Shown here: piece by piece, positions 6,098-38,549 of the stretch | Layout of the letters: each line of letters begins with the position of its first letter | Numbering within the stretch: the stretch's first letter is position 1 | Assembly: GCA_043807255.1 (NCBI GenBank) | Contig: JAZDGD010000010.1 | Location: 1-53,302, forward strand | Source of the DNA: Patescibacteria group bacterium | GTDB lineage: Bacteria; Patescibacteriota; Minisyncoccia; RBG-13-40-8-A | Direction of reading: 5' to 3' | Length of the DNA: 53,302 nucleotides | The notes under the pieces: model-generated | Seen by the model: only the letters and a program-made list of their open reading frames with translations | Databases searched by the model: none | What the model was told of the DNA's origin: nothing | Made by a program: the position numbers and the translations under genes

Positions 6098-7525
6098 TTA
6101 TTTTGTTTTTTTGTCTGGAATTCTGATTTTTAATTCTTTAAGTTGGGCGTCGTCAATTCTGCTTGGTGCGTTCATCATTAAATCGCGTCCGTCGCCTGCC
6201 TTAGGAAACGCAATCACTTCACGAATACTCGGTTCATTATTTAAAATCATAATTAATCGGTCAATGCCCATAGCTATTCCTCCGTGTGGCGGAACGCCAT
6301 AACTAAATGCTTCCAGCATGTGTCCGAATTTTTCCAAAACATCTTCAGTTTTGTTTCCCATTAATTCAAATGTCGCTTGTAGAATCTTTGGGCTGTGTTC
6401 TCTGATTGAACCACCGGCAATTTCATAACCATTACAAACAAAATCATATTGATGAGCTAGTGCTATTTTTTGGTTTTTGTTTAAATATTCAATAAATTCT
6501 TTTTCTGGAAGATTGTTCGGGTTTTGTGCTTTTGTGAATGGGTGATGGGTTGCGTCCCACCTCTTTTCGGTTTCTTTCCATTCAAACGCAGGAAAATCAA
6601 CAACAAAACAAAAAGCCAATTCGTTTTTTCCGCCCGAGGCGGATCCGCCCTGGGCGGAATCTTTCCTTAAATCTGGTTTGTCGGAATTATATTTTTCCAT
6701 TGCTTCCTTGTAGGTTAAGCGCGGGAAGGGAATTTGGGTAATGTGTTTTTCTGGACAAATTTTGGCGACCATTTCAATGGCCATTTTTTCCATTAATGCT
6801 AAAATTTCATCTTGTGTTGGAAACGACATCTCGACGTCTAACTGCGTAAATTCTGGCTGTCTATCTCCTCTTGCGTTTTCGTCTCTGAAGCATCGAGCAA
6901 TTTGAAAATATTTTTCAATTCCCCCAACCATTAACAATTGCTTGTATTGTTGTGGTGATTGCGGAAGCGCATAAAATGTTCCTTCTTGTAGTCGCGATGG
7001 CACAACATAATCACGCGCTCCTTCGGGAGTTGATTTGGTTAAAATCGGAGTTTCAATTTCTAAAAATCCTTTATCCGATAAAAAGTTTCGAATGTATTGT
7101 ATAATTTGATGTCTTAAAATCAAGTTATTTTTAATTCTCTCTCTGCGAATATCAAGATATCTGTATTTTAATCTAAGTTCCTCATTCACTTCGTAGCCAT
7201 CGGTGTCAATTGCAAATGGAGTCGTTTCTGCTTTGTTAATGATTTCTAATTTTTCTGCTTGCATTTCGACCGTTCCAGTTGACAAATTCAGATTAATCAT
7301 TTTGTCCGGTCGCTTATTAATTGTTCCTTCAATTGAAATTACCCATTCGGTTCTTACATCTTTGACCATTTCGGCGTCAGTAAAGACAACCTGTAACAAA
7401 CCAGATCTATCGCGTAAATCAATAAAAACAATTTTACCGTGATTTCTGCGGTTATGCACCCAGCCAAAAACTTTAACCTTTTCTCCTGCCTTATTAATTG
7501 TTTCAATAATATTAGTTCGTTCCAT
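6098..7525 (-). CDS. aspS: Aspartyl-tRNA synthetase, bacterial-type flanks but lacking the GAD insertion domain
   Basis: N-terminal OB fold, QSPQQYKQLLMV, motif 2 FRDENARGDRQPEFTQLD and motif 3 GGIAMGIDRLIM. SDKPDLR is joined to VVDFPAFEW by only about 20 residues. Confidence 0.93.
   Translation of the reverse strand: MERTNIIETINKAGEKVKVFGWVHNRRNHGKIVFIDLRDRSGLLQVVFTDAEMVKDVRTEWVISIEGTINKRPDKMINLNLSTGTVEMQAEKLEIINKAETTPFAIDTDGYEVNEELRLKYRYLDIRRERIKNNLILRHQIIQYIRNFLSDKGFLEIETPILTKSTPEGARDYVVPSRLQEGTFYALPQSPQQYKQLLMVGGIEKYFQIARCFRDENARGDRQPEFTQLDVEMSFPTQDEILALMEKMAIEMVAKICPEKHITQIPFPRLTYKEAMEKYNSDKPDLRKDSAQGGSASGGKNELAFCFVVDFPAFEWKETEKRWDATHHPFTKAQNPNNLPEKEFIEYLNKNQKIALAHQYDFVCNGYEIAGGSIREHSPKILQATFELMGNKTEDVLEKFGHMLEAFSYGVPPHGGIAMGIDRLIMILNNEPSIREVIAFPKAGDGRDLMMNAPSRIDDAQLKELKIRIPDKKTK
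6629..6658. repeat. Tandem GC hairpins inside aspS (TCCGCC-CGA-GGCGGA, TCCGCC-CTG-GGCGGA)
   Basis: Two adjacent 15-nt perfect hairpins encode SAQGG and SASGG in the aspS frame, in an otherwise AT-rich gene. Confidence 0.9.
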
Positions 7526-16036: not shown

Positions 16037-17143
16037 TTAATGCTTGTCCGCAAATTGATCTATAAATTCCAAAATTTCTTTTTTGAAGCGGTCTTCGGAA
16101 AATTGTTGAGCGTGACGAGAAATAAATTGCGAGTCGTAATTTTTGAGGTTTAAGCGCAATCTGCGAATTCCATCTGCTAAAATTGCTGAATTTTGATAAT
16201 CAAAAAATTCTCCAGTTTTTCCCTCAATGACTGTTTCCAATGCTCCGCCTTTTCGATATGCCAAGACCGGCTTGCCACAACTCATTGCTTCAACTGGCGC
16301 AATTCCAAAATCATCATCTGACGGAAAAACAAATGCCGTACAATCTTGATAATATTTTTTCACAACTTCGTTTGATTGAAATCCCAGAAATTTAACATTT
16401 TTCCCATGCCTACCCATGCCTACCGGCAGGCAGGCGGCAGGCAGGTTGGCAATTCTTTGCAAATTTTCTTTTTCTGGTCCGTCCCCTATTATTACTAAAT
16501 CGAGTCCCAATTTATTAAACGCTTCAACCGCCAAATCAATCCGCTTGTATTTTTGTAATCGCGACACAATCAGATAGAATTCTGAATTTTGCTTGTCCTC
16601 CGAAGCCTTGGCGTAGGAGGAGATTTGAACGGGCGGGTATATTACTACCGACTCTCTTTTATAGTATTTTTTAATTCTATTTTGTACCGCTCTCGAACAT
16701 GCGATGAATTTATCCACCCGTTCCGATGCTTGCCTGTCCCACATTCTGAAATAATGTAACAAAATATTTTTTCTTGATTTGTCCCACAAATAACGCGTAG
16801 GACTAAAACAATACGAAATATGAATTGTTTTTGGTCGAGTAATAATTCCTTTTACAAATGAATGACTTGCCGAAATCACAATATCATAATCTCTTAAATC
16901 GATAGTTTCGGCGGCAATTGGTAAAAATGGTAGCAATAATTGATATCTTTTTCTAATAAACAATGGCAATCGCTGTAAAAAAGAAGTGTTCATTCTGTGA
17001 ATCGGAAACAGTTCTTTCTTTATTTTTGGGTCATAAAAAAGAGTATACAACTCGGCGTCAGGAAAAATATCAGACAATGTTTTAAATGTCTTCTCTGCTC
17101 CGCCATAATTCACTAAATAATCGTTTATAATTGCAATTTTCAT
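16037..17143 (-). CDS. Glycosyltransferase family 4
   Basis: GT-B fold C-terminal signature FPSDDDFGIAPVEAMSCGKPVLAYRKGGALETV. ATG 17143 forms an ATGA overlap with the upstream GT4. Confidence 0.85.
   Translation of the reverse strand: MKIAIINDYLVNYGGAEKTFKTLSDIFPDAELYTLFYDPKIKKELFPIHRMNTSFLQRLPLFIRKRYQLLLPFLPIAAETIDLRDYDIVISASHSFVKGIITRPKTIHISYCFSPTRYLWDKSRKNILLHYFRMWDRQASERVDKFIACSRAVQNRIKKYYKRESVVIYPPVQISSYAKASEDKQNSEFYLIVSRLQKYKRIDLAVEAFNKLGLDLVIIGDGPEKENLQRIANLPAACLPVGMGRHGKNVKFLGFQSNEVVKKYYQDCTAFVFPSDDDFGIAPVEAMSCGKPVLAYRKGGALETVIEGKTGEFFDYQNSAILADGIRRLRLNLKNYDSQFISRHAQQFSEDRFKKEILEFIDQFADKH
16403..16447. repeat. GC-rich low-complexity/imperfect palindrome inside the GT4 gene
   Basis: CCATGCCTAC x2 followed by GGCAGGCAGGCGGCAGGCAGG, encoding NLPAACLPVGMGRHG. 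Confidence 0.8.
16596..16621. repeat. GC hairpin TCCTCC...GGAGGA inside the GT4 gene
   Basis: 6-bp outer stem with an imperfect inner GCC/GGC stem, encoding SSYAKASEDK in a linker. Confidence 0.65.
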
Positions 17144-18279
17144 TTTAAAATTACATCTAATGTTTCTTTGGCGCATTTGGGCCAGGAGAAACGTTGAATA
17201 TTTTCATATCCCCTTTTAACTAATTCGTCGCTAAATGTTTGATTGCGAATAATTTGATGAATCCCCTCGGCAATTTCCGATGGTTTATATGGATTAACCA
17301 AAACCGCACTTGGCTCCTTTTGTGACGGATTAAAAACAATTTCCGGCATACTGGAGATACTTGAACAAACAACCGGTGTGCCAACTTTTTGTGCCTCTAA
17401 AATTGGAAGTCCGAATCCTTCATAAAAAGATGGATAAACAAAAACATCGGCATTCTTTAATAAATTCCATTTTTTCTCATCACTAACATACCCGGTGCAA
17501 ATTATTTCATTTTTTAAATCATTGGGAATTTTATATCCAGTATTTGGTCCAACTAAAATTAATTTATGTGGTATTTTATGATCGTTTTTTAAAATCCTGA
17601 GCGCTTTAATTAGGCCATTAATGTTTTTTCTTTTATCTTGTCTGCCAATATAAATTAGGTACGGGCCAAAATGATTTGTTTGGACCGCGTCAAACGCGGC
17701 CTGCGTCGCGTCAAACGCGACTTCGGGGTTCCCAACTCCGTGATACACAACAAAGATTTTGCCTGCCCCGACTTTTTTAAAAACATCGGGGTAATACCTT
17801 AATAAGTCTTGTTTTGTTGACTTTGATGGCACGATAATTCTATTTGCTCTTTTTGTATTTCTTTTCGTAATCCATCTTAAGAATTTTCTTTTTAAAAATG
17901 AATACATTTTAGGCAATTTCTCAAATTCTAATCCTTGAATTGTAACAATCAATTTTGTTTTTTTAGGCAAAAACGGATGTAAATGTGCTGGCGTAAATAA
18001 AATATCGTATTTATTTTTATGCACTTCCCAACTCAATCGAATAATTGTCCAAAACTTTTTAAATGGCCAATTCAGTTGTTTTAAAATGTATCTTTTATTG
18101 TCCGTCTTCGATCCTTCGGCGATTTCTTTTAAAACCGACGTAATTTGCGGAGTTAATATAAAAAATTGATGATTTTCAAAACCATCAACCGACGAGAGAT
18201 TCCAGAGTAAATGATAAATATATTCTTCAACTCCGGTTCTTTTTTCGAGAGGAATATTTACAGAAATTGCTATACGCAT
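17140..18279 (-). CDS. Glycosyltransferase family 4
   Basis: YPSFYEGFGLPILEAQKVGTPVVCS signature on a GT-B fold. Confidence 0.85.
   Translation of the reverse strand: MRIAISVNIPLEKRTGVEEYIYHLLWNLSSVDGFENHQFFILTPQITSVLKEIAEGSKTDNKRYILKQLNWPFKKFWTIIRLSWEVHKNKYDILFTPAHLHPFLPKKTKLIVTIQGLEFEKLPKMYSFLKRKFLRWITKRNTKRANRIIVPSKSTKQDLLRYYPDVFKKVGAGKIFVVYHGVGNPEVAFDATQAAFDAVQTNHFGPYLIYIGRQDKRKNINGLIKALRILKNDHKIPHKLILVGPNTGYKIPNDLKNEIICTGYVSDEKKWNLLKNADVFVYPSFYEGFGLPILEAQKVGTPVVCSSISSMPEIVFNPSQKEPSAVLVNPYKPSEIAEGIHQIIRNQTFSDELVKRGYENIQRFSWPKCAKETLDVILK
17685..17721. repeat. Tandem GC hairpins CCGCGT-CAA-ACGCGG and GTCGCGT-CAA-ACGCGAC inside the GT4 gene
   Basis: Two perfect hairpins 5 nt apart, each encoding AFDA (protein VAFDATQAAFDAVQ). 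Confidence 0.9.
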
Positions 18280-19426: not shown

Positions 19427-20383
19427 ATGACCCGAAAGACACGCAGAATAATTTTTTATCTTTTTGTGGTAATTTTTATCATTGTTGTTCCGATGATAAT
19501 TTTTTATGCCCTGGGATATAATTTTGATTTTGATAAAAAAACAATTGTTGCTACGGGTGGAATTTATTTGAAGTCAGATCCATCTAGAGCTGAAATATAT
19601 ATTAACGACAAATTAAAAACAACTACCAATAAATTAATTAAGCGATTAAGTCCCAAAATATATAATGTTAAAATTACAAAAGAAAATTTTTATCCTTGGG
19701 AAAAAAATTTAATAGTTCAGCCAAACCTTGTAACAAAGGCAAATAGCATTATATTGCTTCCCACAAATCCCAAAATTTCTTTAGTGGCTACTGAAAGTCA
19801 GGGATATATTGCTTTTACGGCCGAAAAAGAATCAGAGTCATATTATATTTTGGAAAACAATCTTTATCGAACAGAAAATAAAGAACTATTAATGCAAAAC
19901 GTGGCAAATTATGTTATTTACAGAGATGGGATTATTTATTTAGACAGCATAAATGGTGAAATTTTTGAACTAAATTTAACCACTCTAAAATCAGCACAGA
20001 TGTTTGATCAAGTATTTCCGAGTTTCAATAAGGGAAAATGGATTTTGTCTGAGGATAATAAAAAATTGCTATGTCAAAAAGATAAATCAGTAGAAATTTT
20101 ATGGTTGGATGACGTAACCAATAATTCAATCCCTCGAAAAAAAGGAGATTTAGATAAAATCGATTTTAATCAAACGATAAATGATGTTATTTGGTATTCA
20201 AAGACAGACGAACATTTAATTATTTCAACTGATAATTCGATTTTGTTTACGGAACTGGATAATCGTTTACCACGAAATACGGTAAACTATATTACCACAG
20301 AAAAACCAGAAATAAAATACGATTCGTCAAACAGAATGTTGTATTTTTTGAGTCAGGATAAATTATATCAAACAGAATTATAA
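19427..20383 (+). CDS. Membrane-anchored PEGA-domain protein
   Basis: N-terminal TM helix and a PEGA-like segment (SDPSRAEIYINDK...IYNVKITKENFYPWEKNL). The C-terminal beta-rich region has unknown function. Confidence 0.65.
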   Translation: MTRKTRRIIFYLFVVIFIIVVPMIIFYALGYNFDFDKKTIVATGGIYLKSDPSRAEIYINDKLKTTTNKLIKRLSPKIYNVKITKENFYPWEKNLIVQPNLVTKANSIILLPTNPKISLVATESQGYIAFTAEKESESYYILENNLYRTENKELLMQNVANYVIYRDGIIYLDSINGEIFELNLTTLKSAQMFDQVFPSFNKGKWILSEDNKKLLCQKDKSVEILWLDDVTNNSIPRKKGDLDKIDFNQTINDVIWYSKTDEHLIISTDNSILFTELDNRLPRNTVNYITTEKPEIKYDSSNRMLYFLSQDKLYQTEL

Positions 20384-20453: not shown

Positions 20454-20493
20454 TAAAAAAATAGCGGGCAGGCACTCCATAGTACTCGCCCGC
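20454..20493 (-). terminator. Possible terminator of the lipoprotein gene
   Basis: GCGGGC/GCCCGC stem (20464-69 and 20488-93) with an 18-nt loop, followed on the minus strand by TAT-T7. Confidence 0.4.
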
Positions 20494-20519
20494 CTTGCGG
20501 TTCCGTGGTCGTGATCGTG

Positions 20520-20978
20520 TTACTTCTTGGGAGGGTTAATGAGGCGCCTGTTGTTGTCCAGGACCCCCTTGTATTCCACGGCCATGTAATAGCCCGAAAT
20601 AGTACCCTTGAGCATGTCTTGAGAAATGGCTACCGGATCGTCTCCGGTAGCAGAGATAAGTATAAAAAATATCTCATCTCCACACTTAATGTCACAATCC
20701 TCGACTACTCTGTTGCTCGGAGTAATCCCTATGCTCAGGATCATAACCTTCCTTTTGAAGTAGTAATCATCGTTGTCTTTGGGGTTTGTAACAATAACGA
20801 AACCCCACCCGGGCATTGATTTTCCCGTGTCCAGAACCCGGGCACGTACGACATCGATTCGCTCATAATTTGATTGGATCACGAGCTCTTCTCCGTCTTT
20901 CGGCTCGGCCCTGTGGCATCCGATGCCGATGACCACGAACATAATCAGAACCATTGAAAGAACGAACATTTTTTTCAT
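20520..20978 (-). CDS. Lipoprotein of unknown function in a GC-rich islet
   Basis: Signal peptide with lipobox (VVIGIGC), SD AAGGAGG upstream, and visibly higher GC than the flanks. Confidence 0.7.
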   Translation of the reverse strand: MKKMFVLSMVLIMFVVIGIGCHRAEPKDGEELVIQSNYERIDVVRARVLDTGKSMPGWGFVIVTNPKDNDDYYFKRKVMILSIGITPSNRVVEDCDIKCGDEIFFILISATGDDPVAISQDMLKGTISGYYMAVEYKGVLDNNRRLINPPKK

Positions 20979-21264: not shown

Positions 21265-23100
21265 TTATTTCAATTTTCCCTCGCGGTAACTTTCATTAAA
21301 CTCTTTCAATTTTGCGCCGACGATTGTATCACAAGTTTTTGTACACATTCCGCACAGAACACATTTTCTGATTTGCTCTTCGATTTCCTCGGTTTCCCCC
21401 TCGACTAAGTTCGGGGCAAGCAGTTTGTACCTTATCAGGTTCTTAAACTGCTTGGGTCCAGTCTCCCCTTTCTTGGAAGTTATCCAGGCAGGACATTTGT
21501 TTTGACAATAAGCACATTCCATACATGGCCACTCTTCATTTCCTAATGGTTTCATCGGAAGTTTAATGTTGTCGTAAATTTTATCTTTGCTGAACATTGT
21601 GCTGGGATTTAAAATATCATCTTTATCAAAGATATTTTTAATTTCTTTCAAATATTTAACAATTTTTCCACCCCATTCTTTTTTCATATACATGCTTCGA
21701 CATCTCCCTCCACCATGTTCAGTTGCGGTTGTGCCATCATATTTAAAAACTGCGGAATAAACTCTATCGGCAATTTTTTTGATTGTTTTAATGTGTTTGG
21801 TTGTTGACGCCTCAATAACTGGGTCAATGTGAATCGTTCCTGTTCCGGCGTGACCATATAAGGCAACCTGAATATCCAAATCTTTAAATATCTTTCTTAG
21901 ATCTTTAAGCAAATCTGGAATGTCTTTTATTCTCACTCCAACATCATCAATCGAAACCAATGGTTTGGTTGTGGGAGAAAATTTTGCAGTTAATGGTAGT
22001 AAACATTTTCGCAGTTCCCAAATTTTTCCCATTTTGTCGGCATCTTTAATTACTTCGCCAACCAAACTAAAATTCTTTAATGAGTTTTCAAATTCTTTTA
22101 GGGTCGCCTCAATTTTTTCATCAAACTGAACAATAAACATCGCTTCTGCTTCTTTGGACAAACCAAGCATCGGAAAACAACTCGATGCAAGTTCAAGTGA
22201 AACTTTATCAACTAATTCTACTCCCGAGCAACCAAGTCGTTTAACTTCTTTAATAAAATTATCAATTTGATATAAGTCAGATAAAAATACTGCCCAAGAA
22301 ACTGGCTTCTCGGTTGGTTTCGGTATCACTTTTAATTTAATTTCCGTAAAAATCCCCAAAGTTCCAATACTGCCCATCATTAAATGTGCAATTAATTCAT
22401 TTGTGTCTGCATATTTATCGAAAGCAGAAATATTATAAACAGAAGCATTTTGTACATCCGCTTTTCGATTCATAATTGCCATCGATTTTTTATCATTCAA
22501 AATTTTTGTGCGCAATGTCTCTAATTTTGTTTTAAATTTTTCAACACCAGCTCCGGTTTCGGTATTTACGATATCTCCGTCAGCATCAACAAATTCAATC
22601 GCCAGCATAAAATCATCAAGCGTACCGTACTTTACGGCTCCTCCTCCACAGGCCTTAGTGGCAACATTTCCGCCAATCATACAAGCTCTTGATGAGGCTG
22701 GCACTGGAGGCAAAAATAGGCCCTTTTCAGCCAACTTTGCCTGTAAATCGTCGTAAATTACCCCAGGCTGAGTGCGAACGAAGCCTGCCCCGAGCGCAGT
22801 CGAGGGGCTGATCTCCAATACTTGATCGAAATATCGAGTAAAATCCATAATGATTCCTGGGCCCACTGCTGTGCCAGCAACAGATGTTCCTGCAGTGCGA
22901 CAAGTAATGCCAATTTGATTTTCTTTGGCGAATTTTACTGTTTGTTGAATATCGTTTTTTGTTTTCGGCAAAACAATTAATTCTGGAACGAATTTATATA
23001 AACTGGCATCAGTTGAATAAATTTCGCGCCAAAATCTTTGTGTTAATATATCGCCTTCAAACTCTTTTTTAAATTCTTCGATTTTTTGTTTTGATAGCAT
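21265..23100 (-). CDS. FAD-linked oxidase (GlcD/D-lactate dehydrogenase-like) fused to a 4Fe-4S dicluster domain
   Basis: PCMH-type FAD-binding N-terminal half. The C-terminus carries CMECAYCQNKCP and CVLCGMCTKTC. Confidence 0.85.
   Translation of the reverse strand: MLSKQKIEEFKKEFEGDILTQRFWREIYSTDASLYKFVPELIVLPKTKNDIQQTVKFAKENQIGITCRTAGTSVAGTAVGPGIIMDFTRYFDQVLEISPSTALGAGFVRTQPGVIYDDLQAKLAEKGLFLPPVPASSRACMIGGNVATKACGGGAVKYGTLDDFMLAIEFVDADGDIVNTETGAGVEKFKTKLETLRTKILNDKKSMAIMNRKADVQNASVYNISAFDKYADTNELIAHLMMGSIGTLGIFTEIKLKVIPKPTEKPVSWAVFLSDLYQIDNFIKEVKRLGCSGVELVDKVSLELASSCFPMLGLSKEAEAMFIVQFDEKIEATLKEFENSLKNFSLVGEVIKDADKMGKIWELRKCLLPLTAKFSPTTKPLVSIDDVGVRIKDIPDLLKDLRKIFKDLDIQVALYGHAGTGTIHIDPVIEASTTKHIKTIKKIADRVYSAVFKYDGTTATEHGGGRCRSMYMKKEWGGKIVKYLKEIKNIFDKDDILNPSTMFSKDKIYDNIKLPMKPLGNEEWPCMECAYCQNKCPAWITSKKGETGPKQFKNLIRYKLLAPNLVEGETEEIEEQIRKCVLCGMCTKTCDTIVGAKLKEFNESYREGKLK
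22764..22808. repeat. Two adjacent GC hairpins inside the oxidase gene
   Basis: CAGGCT-12 nt-AGCCTG (22764-86) and GCCCCGA...TCGAGGGGC (22787-808), encoding SPSTALGAGFVRTQPG. Confidence 0.75.
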
Positions 23101-35107: not shown

Positions 35108-36043
35108 TTATTTTTTACTTAACACCTCTAACATGTCTTTGGTCATGCTTGTTAAGTCATATTGTGGTTTCCATCCCCACTCTTTTTTGGCAATAGAATC
35201 ATCAATTGATTTTGGCCAGGAATCGGCAATTTTTTGACGAAAATCTGGCTTATATTCACATACGAATTCAGGAATATGTTTTTTAATTTCTTCCGCTAAT
35301 TCCCCTGCTGAAAAACTCATTGCAGAAAGATTGAAATCAGTGTGGTGTTCAAGAGAAGAAAAATCTGCCTCCATTAAATCTATAATCGATTTTAAACAAT
35401 CAGGCATATACATCATCGGAAGAACCGTATCTTCTTGCAAAAAACAAGTGTATTTTTTATTTTTTACTGCGGCAAAGAAAATTTCTACTGCATAATCAGT
35501 TGTGCCTCCTCCTGGCAATGTTTTATGGCTAATAATGCCAGGAAATCTACATCCTCGAACATCAAGATTAAATTTTTTTACATAATAATCACCAAGAAGT
35601 TCGCCAGCTACCTTGGTTAGGCCATACATTGTTTTTGGGCGCAAAATAGTTTCTTGCGGAGTATTGTCGCGAGGAGTTTCTGGTCCAAAAGCAGCAATAG
35701 AGCTTGGAATAAAAATTTTATTTATTTTATATTCGCGCGCAACTTCAAGAATATTATATGTTCCATTAATATTAACGTCCCAAGCAAGGGCAGGATTTTC
35801 TTCTCCTTTTGCTGAAAGTATGGCCGCTAAATGGTAAATTGTATCAATGTTATATTTTTTAACTGCCATCTCAATGCTTTCTTTTTTAACTACATCAACA
35901 ATCTCAAAAATACCAGTATTATCTTTTTTAATAATGTCAGTTGCTATAACATTGTCATCGCCGTATTTCTCTCTTAGAATCGGAATTAATTCGGAACCAA
36001 TCTGTCCCGACGCACCTGTTACCATAATTTTTTTGATTATCAT
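35108..36043 (-). CDS. NAD-dependent epimerase/dehydratase family SDR (L-threonine 3-dehydrogenase-like)
   Basis: VTGASGQIGSEL...YGDDNVIATDI and the catalytic YGLTK. Confidence 0.75.
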   Translation of the reverse strand: MIIKKIMVTGASGQIGSELIPILREKYGDDNVIATDIIKKDNTGIFEIVDVVKKESIEMAVKKYNIDTIYHLAAILSAKGEENPALAWDVNINGTYNILEVAREYKINKIFIPSSIAAFGPETPRDNTPQETILRPKTMYGLTKVAGELLGDYYVKKFNLDVRGCRFPGIISHKTLPGGGTTDYAVEIFFAAVKNKKYTCFLQEDTVLPMMYMPDCLKSIIDLMEADFSSLEHHTDFNLSAMSFSAGELAEEIKKHIPEFVCEYKPDFRQKIADSWPKSIDDSIAKKEWGWKPQYDLTSMTKDMLEVLSKK

Positions 36044-36054
36044 GTTTATATTTT

Positions 36055-36108
36055 GAGGTTAAACCTCCTTAAATTATTTATTTTTTAATATCGGGAGGTT
36101 TAACCTCC
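36055..36108. repeat. Double-hairpin module GAGGTTAAACCTC-N26-GGAGGTTTAACCTCC, ending 11 nt upstream of the SDR start
   Basis: Palindromes at 36055-67 and 36094-108. The spacer shares ATATTAAAAAATAA with the module at 23112-23161. Confidence 0.9.
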
Positions 36109-36139
36109 GCACATTTTTTATTATAACAGAATAAAAATT

Positions 36140-36172
36140 AAAATAAAAATAAAAGGGGCGGTTTCCCACCCC
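36140..36172 (-). terminator. Terminator of the zinc-ribbon gene
   Basis: On the minus strand, GGGGUGG-GAAA-CCGCCCC is followed by UUUUAUUUUU. Confidence 0.75.
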
Positions 36173-36189
36173 GGCGAATTCGCACGACA

Positions 36190-36372
36190 CTACCTGATTA
36201 TTACAATCAGGTTGCATGTCTCACACTTGTGCCCGTGTCTGACCACCGGACCGTTCGCTTCTGCATGGAGTTCCATCGTCTTGCCACATTCCGGACATTT
36301 GGGATATGTTACAAAAAAGTACTTCAATCCCCTCAAAGAACCAAAAGAAATCGTTCTGCTCGCCTTTTCCAT
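36190..36372 (-). CDS. 60-aa zinc-ribbon protein in a GC-rich islet
   Basis: CPECG...CETC four-Cys pattern and SD AAGGAGA 7 nt upstream. The last 7 codons lie in the hairpin ACCTGATT/AATCAGGT. Confidence 0.6.
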   Translation of the reverse strand: MEKASRTISFGSLRGLKYFFVTYPKCPECGKTMELHAEANGPVVRHGHKCETCNLIVIIR

Positions 36373-36404
36373 GTTTTTGTCTCCTTAAATTACATACTAC
36401 CACC

Positions 36405-37457
36405 TTATTTATTTTGCGTCAATTGACCGCAGGCAGCTTGAATCTCCGAGCCTAAACTTTTTCTAATTGTCGTGCTAATTTTATTTTTGATTAAAAAGTT
36501 TTTAATCCCCTGAACCTTGTTATAATCAGAAGCTTTTAGTTTTGAATCCGTAGAATTATATCGAATCAAATTAACATGCAATAAATAATTGTTTTGAATT
36601 GATTTTAAATATTTTAAAAGTTCTTCAACATCTTTTTCAGTATCGTTTATATCTTTGAGCAATAGATATTCAATAAATATTTTTCGTTTTGTAATTTGAA
36701 AATAATTCTCAATCCCCTGCTTTATTTTTTCTAAATCATATTCTTTATTAATCGGCATATATTGACTGCGTTTTTTGTTATTCGCAAAATGTAATGAAAT
36801 TGCCAAATTAATTTGTGAAAATTCTTTGGCAAAATCCTCAACTTTATCCATGACTCCCGAAGTTGAAACAGAAATACTACGCGAACCAAAACCAAACAAA
36901 TCTTCATTAATTAAGTCCAATAGTGCTTGTTCGACGTTCTCCCAATTTAAAAATGGTTCGCCCATGCCCATCAACACAATATTGCTAATCGCAATATTGG
37001 AATCTCTAATCTCTAATTTCGAATTTCTAATGTTACCCAAATATTGACGCCAAAATAAAATTTGATCAGTGATTTCTTCTGATGTGAGATTTCTTTTTAG
37101 ACCCATTTTGCCGGTGGCGCAAAATTCACAAGCCAGCGCACAACCTGCTTGCGACGAAACACATACTGACCACAATCCTGGCTTTGGTGAAATTAAAACC
37201 GTTTCAATAAAATTATCATCTTTTAGTCTTAATAATGCCTTAAACGATTTATTGTCTTTAGAAATTAAAAGATTCTCTTGTTTAAACGATAAAATTTGGA
37301 TTTCTTTGTCCAGTAATTCTCGCAAGTCCTTAGGAATATTTTTTATTTCTGAAAACGAACAAACGCCATCTTTATAGATGGCCTTTTTAATCTGTTCCAA
37401 CCTATATTTCGGCTGTTCATTCTCTTTCAAAATTTTCTCAAGTTTTTGTATATTCAT
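36405..37457 (-). CDS. rlmN: 23S rRNA/tRNA m2A methyltransferase (radical SAM)
   Basis: CALACEFCATG radical-SAM cluster, MGMGEP, and C-terminal AACGQL. Confidence 0.92.
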   Translation of the reverse strand: MNIQKLEKILKENEQPKYRLEQIKKAIYKDGVCSFSEIKNIPKDLRELLDKEIQILSFKQENLLISKDNKSFKALLRLKDDNFIETVLISPKPGLWSVCVSSQAGCALACEFCATGKMGLKRNLTSEEITDQILFWRQYLGNIRNSKLEIRDSNIAISNIVLMGMGEPFLNWENVEQALLDLINEDLFGFGSRSISVSTSGVMDKVEDFAKEFSQINLAISLHFANNKKRSQYMPINKEYDLEKIKQGIENYFQITKRKIFIEYLLLKDINDTEKDVEELLKYLKSIQNNYLLHVNLIRYNSTDSKLKASDYNKVQGIKNFLIKNKISTTIRKSLGSEIQAACGQLTQNK

Positions 37458-38549
37458 TTACGCATTGCTTTTAATTTCAATTACATCGCCATCTTTGATG
37501 ATGGCTTCCTTGCCTTCGGTGCGGATTAGACCTTTTTCGCGAGCATTTCCAAAACCGTTGGCATTTAGCAGGTCCTTCCAATTTACAACCTCTGCCTTAA
37601 TGAAACATCTTTCAAAATCAGTATGAATTACTCCGCCTGCTTGTGGTGCAGTACTGCCCCTGGTCAATGTCCAAGCACGAGTTTCATCTGCTCCTGTTGT
37701 TAAAAACGTGATCAAATCAAGCAATCTGTATGCTTCTTTAATCAATTCGTCCAACTTTGATAATTCTGATAAGCCCAATTCTTTCCTTTCTTCCGTGCCT
37801 AAATCGTTTGCCCCAAATTCACTTAAAATATCAATGATAATATATGGCCAATTTTTATCCTTGAAAACGTTTGTAATTTCGTCAGGAATTTCTTCTTCTT
37901 GACCATTCAATAAATACAAACGTTTTTTCATTGTCAAAAGTTGATAACTACGTAAAATAACTAATTCTTCTTCATCCCACCCCATTTCACTCAAAATTTT
38001 TCCAGTTTTTAAAAATTCCATCGCCTTCTTTAAAACCTCATTTTCTCCGCCAAAAGCTTTGCATTTTGACGGGCCCGCCTGCATCCCGCGGGTTGCGGCG
38101 GGCTTCTTCAGTCTCTCTAGGACATTCTCTACGGTCTCCAAGTCCTTCAAAGCCATTTCCGTATCTAAAATCTCTTTATCTTCTACTGGGTCAATTTTTT
38201 CACGAGTATTAATAATTTTTGCATTTTTAAAGCAACGCAAAACATATACAATAGCATCAACTTCTCTGATGTTGGCTAAAAATTTATTGCCCAATCCCTC
38301 GCCTTGACTCGCGCCCTTAACCAATCCAGCAATATCAACAAATTTTACGGTTGCATAAATCTTTTTTGCCGAATGAGTTAATTCCGCTAACTTATCAACT
38401 CGTTCGTCAGGAACAGCAACCACACCAATGTTTGGATCAATGGTGCAAAATGGATAATTTGCGCAATCTACTTGTTTTTTGGTGATCGCCTGAAACAGGG
38501 TTGATTTCCCCACATTCGGCAATCCCACAATTCCAATTGAGAGAGACAT
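37458..38549 (-). CDS. ychF: Ribosome-binding ATPase YchF
   Basis: GLPNVGKSTLF G1 motif, inserted helical domain, and C-terminal TGS-like HTDFERCFIKAEV. Confidence 0.93.
   Translation of the reverse strand: MSLSIGIVGLPNVGKSTLFQAITKKQVDCANYPFCTIDPNIGVVAVPDERVDKLAELTHSAKKIYATVKFVDIAGLVKGASQGEGLGNKFLANIREVDAIVYVLRCFKNAKIINTREKIDPVEDKEILDTEMALKDLETVENVLERLKKPAATRGMQAGPSKCKAFGGENEVLKKAMEFLKTGKILSEMGWDEEELVILRSYQLLTMKKRLYLLNGQEEEIPDEITNVFKDKNWPYIIIDILSEFGANDLGTEERKELGLSELSKLDELIKEAYRLLDLITFLTTGADETRAWTLTRGSTAPQAGGVIHTDFERCFIKAEVVNWKDLLNANGFGNAREKGLIRTEGKEAIIKDGDVIEIKSNA
38073..38103. repeat. 31-nt GC hairpin inside ychF
   Basis: GCCCGCC-T-GCA-T-CCCGCGGG-T-TGC-GGCGGGC encodes PAATRGMQAGP. Positions 38072-38085 are identical to 45628-45641. 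Confidence 0.9.

Follow-up and report, generated by a model that had tools for sequence, protein, structure and literature searches.

Palindromic repeats residing within protein-coding genes have been described in bacteria and in organelles. Rickettsia palindromic elements (RPEs) are ~150 bp long and have integrated 44 times in genes of R. conorii (PMC10969869). Mitochondrial GC clusters, double-hairpin elements (DHEs) and repetitive hairpin-forming elements (RHEs) are GC-rich hairpins that show complementary substitutions; they occur in intergenic and variable rRNA regions and occasionally in protein genes, are kept in transcripts and differ between close relatives, and their mobility is debated (PMC2800124). 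Here we describe a 30-bp GC-rich double-hairpin (DH) element at positions 6629-6658 of a 53,302-nt contig of a Patescibacteria group bacterium (JAZDGD010000010.1, assembly GCA_043807255.1, positions 1 to 53,302; the whole stretch is hereafter called the window). The element lies within the gene for a bacterial-type aspartyl-tRNA synthetase (AspRS) that lacks the GAD domain. On the evidence presented below, it is probably a secondary insertion of a repeat into the short linker of an already GAD-less AspRS.

The element, to which no strand is assigned, consists of two adjoining perfect 6-3-6 hairpins of 15 nt each, TCCGCC-CGA-GGCGGA (6629-6643, TCCGCCCGAGGCGGA) and TCCGCC-CTG-GGCGGA (6644-6658, TCCGCCCTGGGCGGA). 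As a whole, the 30-mer is an imperfect palindrome centred on GGATCC. The original prediction had described two back-to-back perfect 15-nt hairpins encoding SAQGG-SASGG, and the sequence bears this out. The two hairpins are the sole exact matches to TCCGCC-N3-GGCGGA within the window, for which the base composition predicts ~1.3e-4 single and ~3e-13 double hairpins by chance. The GC content of the 30-mer is 80%, compared with 34.5% for the window, and its codons are minority choices here: TCC (9.7% of Ser), GCC (19% of Ala), GGC (25% of Gly) and CAG (19% of Gln). Its single-strand minimum-energy fold is one long imperfect hairpin centred on GGATCC (-13.5/-13.8 kcal/mol as DNA, z ~ -3.2/-3.4); as RNA, this long hairpin reaches -23.4 kcal/mol versus -18.7 kcal/mol for the two-hairpin form. 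The arrangement is not that of an intrinsic terminator, as on either strand a T-run lies 5' and an A-run 3' of the hairpins, and the element is situated mid-way in an intact open reading frame (ORF) and not at a gene end.

The host gene (6098..7525, minus strand) is an intact ORF of 475 aa. Pfam matched tRNA_anti-codon (PF01336, E 1e-17; the N-terminal OB anticodon-binding domain) and tRNA-synt_2 (PF00152, E 2.5e-117; the class II core) in the encoded protein and gave no match to GAD (PF02938). Alignment with the Thermus thermophilus AspRS sequence from the PDB (1EFW) pairs residues 12-287 with 14-294 and residues 303-468 with 418-576. In bacterial-type AspRS, GAD is an insertion of about 120-130 residues that separates motif 2 from motif 3. 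Both results confirm that GAD is missing at this junction, as had been supposed: the 123 T. thermophilus residues 295-417 are replaced by a 15-residue linker (residues 288-302, KDSAQGGSASGGKNE; 6620..6664, minus strand). Within this linker the 30-mer encodes residues 290-299, in the context SDKPDLRKD-SAQGGSASGG-KNELAFCFVVDFPAFEW, and its flanks are native (AAA GAT before, AAA AAC GAA after).

The protein is a bacterial-type AspRS by sequence and by fold. A PDB sequence search returned bacterial AspRS with E-values of 1e-135 to 1e-102 and archaeal AspRS with 1e-47, and an AlphaFold2 model (89 homologues, mean pLDDT 86.1) gave query-normalised Foldseek TM-scores of 0.84-0.86 with bacterial and ~0.69 with archaeal AspRS. 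The gene context, with MreBCD, PBP2, MurG, FtsW and MraY, is bacterial as well. Residues 291-297 are modelled as coil with pLDDT <50 in an otherwise confident model; two further low-confidence regions correspond to known mobile active-site loops. The model thus places the insert in a disordered loop, at the GAD exit point of the catalytic core. The original prediction had expected a surface loop closing that core: the model supplies the disordered coil, and the geometry of the loop at the GAD exit point suggests that it is solvent-exposed.

We compared the junction with those of the 120 best homologues (457-487 aa; source names Portnoybacteria, Paceibacterota or Patescibacteria; here and below, AspRS homologues are given as P numbers and loci as L numbers). 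All 120 lack GAD. In 112 of them, a plain AT-rich junction of 8 residues connects the landmarks on either side, typically as RKD-KND-KNELAF. The nearest relatives of the window AspRS (87-89% identical) have such an empty junction, K-D-K-N-D-K-N-E, with no hairpin; for example, the three nearest proteins (P0003, P0002, P0004; 88-89% identical outside the junction) read KD/KN-KND/KDD-KNE. Empty alleles from three clades (L001 and L253; L252; L251) share the sequence AAA GAY AAA AAY GAY AAA AAY GAA. Relative to these, the window allele, AAA GAT-(30 nt)-AAA AAC GAA, represents an insertion accompanied by loss of 9 nt of repetitive linker. An insertion at the junction is found in the remaining 8 of the 120 homologues, which fall in three separate clades and each of which has empty-junction nearest neighbours.

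These alleles bear directly on the proposal that the hairpin pair marks the scar of a deletion or recombination event that removed GAD. The pair does lie exactly where the T. thermophilus residues are missing, and palindromes can promote deletions. Against this stand the universal absence of GAD among the 120 homologues, the plain AT-rich junction in 112 of them including the nearest relatives, and the occurrence of the same element in dozens of unrelated genes that never had GAD. We therefore consider a scar very improbable, and this part of the original prediction is not upheld. Because the nearest relatives and three clades carry an empty GAD-less junction, the junction is older than the hairpins, and the hairpin pair is a later insertion.

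In this Patescibacteria clade, a bacterial-type AspRS that has lost GAD seems to be the norm, and we found no description of it in the literature searched, the coverage of which was incomplete. GAD contacts GatCAB in bacterial transamidosomes. Its clade-wide absence may therefore have a bearing on tRNA-dependent Asn synthesis or on the interaction with the GatCAB transamidosome, which is a separate point from the insert.

Junction DNA was compared for 7 of the 8 carriers (the window and six relatives), P0080 being judged on its protein sequence. In L004 (76% identical protein), the coding strand is identical to the plus-strand 30-mer of the window, i.e. it is the exact reverse complement of the window coding strand. 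The L004 copy is located two codons further 5' and represents an insertion with loss of 15 nt. The stems recur in L003 (65% identical), where the loops are CGA/TTT and the element forms a clean insertion between AAA AAC and AAA AAA GAT. The insertion boundaries thus differ: the residues preceding the insert are RKD in the window, R in L004 and RKN in L003. A different hairpin, (T/C)CC-T-CGA-N6-TCGG(A/G)(A/G), occupies this AspRS position in L005, L008 and L007, in copies that look eroded. A third hairpin element of 36 nt is present in L006 at the exact nucleotide position used in L003, and a peptide related to it is found at the junction of P0080. The AspRS in L006 (P0060) has another insert in its anticodon-binding domain (L006 10144-10173, CCAGCC-TAC-GGCTGG followed by TCACCC-GCA-GGGTGA, encoding QPTAGHPQGD), so that a single gene harbors two hairpin inserts.

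Could a single element, ancestral at this junction, have been inherited vertically, with many precise losses, one inversion and no repeated gain? The window and L004 do share the rare loop pair CGA/CTG. The site is also flanked by A-rich repeats, and palindromes flanked by short direct repeats are unstable. However, the boundaries vary among the window, L004 and L003, the carriers, from three separate clades, are all surrounded by neighbours with an empty site, and three unrelated hairpin families occur at the same position. Moreover, the near-identical empty alleles of three clades would call for many precise excisions restoring the same 24 nt. We find such a history improbable. The differing boundaries, opposite orientations, three unrelated sequences and polyphyletic carriers instead point to repeated and independent gain of hairpin elements at a permissive, possibly preferred, A-rich site.

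The DH element is not confined to AspRS. We scanned 185,579 species-representative genomes (596 Gb) with the exact pattern TCCGCC-N3-GGCGGATCCGCC-N3-GGCGGA (24 specified bases) and recovered at least 120 genome stretches with at least 126 exact-stem copies, compared with 5e-6 to 0.1 stretches expected by chance. Among the matches listed, all are from metagenome-assembled genomes (MAGs) and the majority are from Patescibacteria. Other hosts among them include Omnitrophota, Ignavibacteriota (including 1.6-Mb contigs), Kiritimatiellae, Lentisphaerae and Planctomycetes, along with a few high-GC Chloroflexota that possibly match by chance. The consensus of the 124 copies with full flanks is ttT-TCCGCC-nRA-GGCGGA-TCCGCC-TYn-GGCGGA-Aaa, a sequence identical to its reverse complement. 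Loop pairs are sometimes the same between different loci of a single MAG. We found no description of this family in the literature searched, outside which most subscription journals lie, but only of analogues. A viral vector was considered for the family and is unsupported, as only 2 of 2.9 million viral contigs (IMG/VR) contain the pattern.

In one Kiritimatiellae MAG (L013 4587-4616 and 6408-6437; L058; L010), the double hairpin belongs to a longer, composite repeat as one of its modules. This repeat also holds other GC-rich hairpin modules, for example ...CCTTCGACTTCGCTCAGGGCAGGC..., and is reminiscent of mosaic clusters of repetitive extragenic palindromic (REP) sequences.

The wide occurrence of the element argues against a local origin, either through chance palindromy or through 15-nt tandem duplication or slippage in a Gly/Ser-rich loop, unrelated to sequences elsewhere. 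It is true that the two 15-mers differ in their loops only, as a tandem duplication would give, and that the surrounding linker is repetitive (AAA GAT AAA AAT GAT AAA AAC). Nevertheless, the chance expectation for a double hairpin is vanishingly small, the 30-mer has 80% GC and minority codons in a 34% GC genome, an identical 30-mer is present in inverted orientation in another species, and at least 126 further copies exist elsewhere. A local origin is thus highly unlikely. The original prediction had held that an unrelated AT-rich linker in close relatives, together with a lack of hairpin-bearing variants, would indicate chance palindromy. The first half was found and the second was not: there are variants with hairpins, among them the identical 30-mer in inverted orientation, and the palindromy is therefore not due to chance.

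Copies of the family show a marked preference for one reading frame. The DH element is 30 nt long with no stop codon in its usual frame, and because each 15-mer amounts to five codons symmetric about the middle codon, both strands read S-A-x-G-G twice. Half of the copies (63/126) are located within unambiguous long ORFs, and only 23 lack any ORF of at least 100 codons. The SAxGG frame is used by 55 of the 63 copies in unambiguous long ORFs (binomial P ~1e-18); the remaining frames would encode Arg-rich or Pro-rich peptides. This bias probably reflects purifying selection on the encoded peptide and, together with the intact frame, suggests that the insert is translated. Orientation relative to transcription (28:27) was also counted and is uninformative, since the consensus is self-reverse-complementary; the frame bias alone stands.

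A local all-against-all comparison revealed a clean 8-10-residue gap relative to homologues in many unrelated proteins, which we named from motifs visible in the alignments. Inserts were found in a release factor, RecJ, TsaD, a class I aminoacyl-tRNA synthetase (beside KMSKS), MraY and a FolD-like protein, as well as in two RpoB-sized proteins and in secreted proteins of Ignavibacteriota. AspRS itself has two more insertion sites: the element follows DFPFF in L046 and precedes QYD in L019. In Ignavibacteriota, three proteins carry orthologous copies. The suggestion that a palindromic element was co-opted as a linker is thus correct as far as a widespread repeat is read in-frame; as a means of joining the two halves of AspRS it is unneeded, as relatives close the junction with an AT-rich linker.

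Hairpin structure is retained beyond the exact stems. A sequence-blind scan of 1.65 Mb for two abutting perfect 6-3-6 hairpins recovered 140 double hairpins, compared with 0-1 in shuffled sequences. Nine of the 140 are non-canonical with co-varying stems (for example CCAGCC/GGCTGG, TCACCC/GGGTGA, CCACCC/GGGTGG, TTCGCC/GGCGAA, CCCTCC/GGAGGG and CCCGCC/GGCGGG), and all keep the nRA/TYn loops. Most hairpins that seem solitary in fact have a partner with changes in both arms and are double hairpins. Given this covariation in relatives, and since an element may combine hairpins with different stems, it is the individual 15-nt hairpin that is conserved as a unit, despite the long-hairpin minimum-energy fold. 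Covariation could reflect selection on structure or, equally, templating of one arm from the other. A perfect 30-nt palindrome was also considered as the selected unit and rejected: fully complementary loops are found in 24 of 124 copies, compared with ~18 expected from loop composition, and stems can differ within an element.

The resemblance of SAxGG-SAxGG to engineered flexible linkers and the central GGATCC raised the concern of an artefact, namely a synthetic Gly/Ser linker with a BamHI site, an adaptor or an assembly chimera. We consider this hardly credible. The copies are in-frame within intact essential genes from at least 120 independent assemblies produced with different assemblers, including the 1.6-Mb contigs. 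Furthermore, their loops vary and their stems co-vary, and neither the frame bias nor the orthologous copies of Ignavibacteriota are expected of an artefact.

The main competing explanation is a functional cis-element that spreads because it is useful, such as a two-fold symmetric site bound by a protein on duplex DNA, a signal for recombination or DNA uptake, or an mRNA hairpin working in either orientation; coding regions would then simply offer room in compact genomes. The consensus is indeed fully two-fold symmetric, including its flanks (ttT...Aaa) and loops (nRA/TYn), like the operator of a dimeric protein, and its palindromy gives the same RNA stems in either orientation. Compensatory changes maintain the stems, which persist in spite of their high GC content in genomes of 33-40% GC. 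Finally, some non-coding copies are located at the tips of longer palindromes or within short tandem-repeat arrays. On the other hand, the same stems recur across several phyla, unlike species-specific uptake signals or operators, and copy density is low. Positions in orthologous genes are not conserved and presence among close relatives is sporadic. The L005, L007 and L008 copies at the AspRS junction look decayed, as would be expected without selection, and we found neither an associated binding protein nor a gene set under its regulation. Overall, we regard a useful cis-element as unlikely, and favor a secondary insertion of a selfish or neutral repeat that is probably of no use to AspRS.

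On this reading, the element would land in AT-rich codons of an existing linker, where any orientation reads Ser-Ala-x-Gly-Gly twice, and in AspRS it would merely lengthen a disordered loop at the place where other bacteria carry GAD, and so be tolerated. Copies would be gained sporadically and survive where ten flexible residues are harmless and the frame gives Ser, Ala and Gly; older copies may decay under AT mutation pressure into ordinary linker sequence. With low confidence, we infer that the repeat spreads as DNA, via a trans-acting enzyme that recognises hairpins or palindromes or via template switching at replication forks. Our preference, again with low confidence, is for single-stranded DNA at replication forks as the place where the hairpins form or are recognised.

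Taking the longest word shared by the two flanks, direct repeats of at least 6 nt are found at 28% of copies versus 11% of controls, and those of at least 9 nt at 4.3% versus 0.4% (P = 3e-7). These repeats vary from 6 to 15 nt and concern a minority of copies, and the AspRS target is itself repetitive and of low complexity. In L044, L067, L068, L069, L110 and L126, the same 9-15-nt word is present on both sides of the copy, or the copy lies inside short tandem repeats. The L044 copy is situated in an apparent UvrC N-terminus with a GIY-YIG-like motif, as judged by eye. Flanking words of 9-15 nt could represent either a target duplication of variable length or a preference for repetitive targets.

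As candidate mobilisers we noted two Y1 transposase genes (HUH, IS200/RAYT-like; PF01797) in relatives that both carry hairpin elements, at L007 17255-17968 and L044 561-1016. A tblastn search with the L007 protein gave no match in the window and, among ~130 loci, recovered only L007 and L044. A link with RAYT thus has no support at the locus scale.

Several points weigh against the insertion of a mobile repeat. No mobilising enzyme was found, the Y1 transposase being absent from the window and present in only 2 of the ~130 loci, and no fixed-length target-site duplication was found among the copies. Perfect stems may come from a templating mechanism and not from selection. Loops differ between copies in one genome, which is unusual for simple copy-and-paste. 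Copy number per genome also seems low, with 1 copy in the 53 kb of the window and ~7 extra copies/Mb around the matches. Lastly, since exact stems were required, the size and taxonomic range of the family are lower bounds, with taxa taken from MAG labels.

Other ORFs in the window harbor comparable hairpin sequences. A 42-nt, 71% GC palindromic insertion (LPAACLPVGMGRHG, with a computed fold) is located at 16403..16444 on the minus strand within a GT4 glycosyltransferase ORF (16037..17176), and the orthologues in L253 and L006, the two closest syntenic genomes, lack it. A second glycosyltransferase ORF (17140..18279) carries, at 17680..17728 on the minus strand, two tandem hairpins with 7-bp stems of the form G[T/C]CGCGT-TTG-ACGCG[A/G]C. 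These hairpins, GTCGCGT-TTG-ACGCGAC and GCCGCGT-TTG-ACGCGGT, show one compensatory pair, encode VAFDAT/AAFDAV, fold with -18.1 kcal/mol (z -3.7) and constitute another double-hairpin family. The YchF ORF (37458..38549) contains a GC-rich nested hairpin (38061..38115, minus strand; GCCCGCC...CCCGCGGG...GGCGGGC) that encodes PAATRGMQAGP and folds with -15.9 kcal/mol (z -2.4); ~8 extra residues are present here relative to Haemophilus influenzae YchF.

A putative FAD-linked oxidase ORF (21265..23100) carries a copy of a further family, CCCTCGA-N5-CTCGGGGCA, which encodes PSTALGA (22786..22806, minus strand). The copy reads CCCTCGA-CTGCG-CTCGGGGCA-GGC (PSTALGAG), and an additional hairpin then reaches position 22761 (island 22761-22817). 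This family was found in at least 120 metagenome stretches (loci L131-L250) within sequence of 35-73% GC, sometimes in 24-nt tandem arrays (L184, L225, L244), and the decayed junction copies of L005, L007 and L008 in AspRS belong to it.

With these, at least four GC-rich palindromic islands besides the DH element lie within other ORFs of the window. In the ~20 kb syntenic with L253, L001, L005 and L006, almost every indel of at least 7 residues is a palindromic stretch with 50-81% GC, whichever genome carries it. Since nearly all long indels between these syntenic orthologues are GC-rich palindromes, insertion of GC-rich hairpins is a general route by which proteins of these bacteria change in length.

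GC-rich islands were also considered as genes for structured RNAs. This was rejected because the window contains no tRNA or tmRNA gene and no match to Rfam at gathering thresholds; a permissive Rfam scan of the GC-rich intergenic region 35950-36450 returned noise only. Within this part of the window, a locally GC-rich, intergenic-looking gap (GC-rich stretch 36154-36258) contains a 60-aa ORF (36190-36372, minus strand) with two CxxC pairs (CPEC...CETC) and a zinc-ribbon-like look; the hairpin GGGGCGGTTTCCCACCCC comes after this ORF. At ~36054-36108 there is an AT-rich palindrome (GAGGTTAAACCTCC...GGAGGTTTAACCTCC). Elsewhere, a GC-rich hairpin at 20464-20517 (GCGGGCAGGC...GCCCGCC) is found between the convergent ORFs 19427..20383 (plus strand) and 20520..20978 (minus strand), and may be a bidirectional terminator or another hairpin element.

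More broadly, we tentatively propose, with the balance tipping slightly against it, that the DH element and sister families such as CCCTCGA-N5-CTCGGGGCA represent a so far undescribed superfamily of mobile elements in the form of ultra-short (30-bp), GC-rich double hairpins. Its members would move between and within genomes of several uncultivated phyla, in either orientation, as a ready-made SAxGG-SAxGG linker. In the streamlined proteins of Patescibacteria they would be a main origin of new loops, and they would be the smallest known translated mobile insertions. If these elements are mobile, protein-inserted palindromic repeats would extend from Rickettsia and mitochondria to ultra-small free-living or episymbiotic bacteria and to other phyla, with a size below that of any described miniature inverted-repeat transposable element (MITE). 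Such mobility would explain much of the indel variation between orthologous Patescibacteria proteins. It would also mark insertion-tolerant loops of essential enzymes, the vestigial GAD junction having been hit independently by three families. The peptides SAxGGSAxGG and PSTxLGA could then serve as annotation signatures that separate recent selfish inserts from native sequence.

Among described systems, REP sequences and MITEs share formal features with the DH element. REPs are likewise short imperfect palindromes with hairpin potential in single-stranded DNA, and a REPIN comprises two inverted REPs just as the DH element formally comprises two inverted 15-mers. However, REPs are extragenic, lineage-specific and present in hundreds per genome, with a RAYT gene flanked by REPs, whereas DH copies are mostly intragenic and of low density, share stems across phyla, and have no Y1 gene accompanying them in the window. 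MITEs resemble the element in being non-autonomous, in their terminal inverted symmetry, in occasional in-frame fusion with ORFs and in presence or absence among relatives. They differ in that the DH element has no fixed-length target-site duplication; MITEs also have a parent insertion sequence (IS) with the same ends. The lower size bound of described MITEs is roughly 50 bp, and the DH element is shorter.

Palindromic repeats with coding potential, readable within ORFs in both orientations, were reportedly described in Methanocaldococcus jannaschii by Suyama et al. in 2005. PARCEL repeats are long tandem coding repeats of surface proteins. The palindromic PARCEL repeats of Mollicutes are likewise readable within ORFs in both orientations (PMC2996958). 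Both kinds resemble the DH element in this. Their sequences are unrelated to it, and the DH element is a single 10-codon insert in housekeeping enzymes.

The closest parallels in behaviour are RPEs and the mitochondrial GC-cluster and double-hairpin elements. As in RPEs, repeated palindromic DNA is found in-frame in unrelated housekeeping genes of a small AT-rich genome, where it would add translated surface segments compatible with the fold. In contrast to RPEs, the DH element is 30 bp long and not ~100-150 bp, is GC-rich and exactly codon-symmetric with an unrelated sequence, and occurs across several phyla instead of one genus at an apparently low copy number per genome, and so does not belong to the RPE family. 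Yeast var1 GC clusters, Allomyces DHEs and sponge RHEs are likewise GC-rich single, double or multiple hairpins in compact AT-rich genomes. These are mitochondrial, whereas the DH element is bacterial by its gene context and Patescibacteria homologues, has a fixed 6-3-6|6-3-6 layout, is mostly found inside ORFs in one frame and shares its stems across phyla. It is of interest mainly for being shared across phyla, for its minimal size and for the symmetry of its codons, a design that yields the same peptide in both orientations and makes it a natural analogue of engineered Gly/Ser linkers. In summary, the DH element comes closest in behaviour to RPEs and to the mitochondrial elements and is a member of neither, since size, sequence and host differ.

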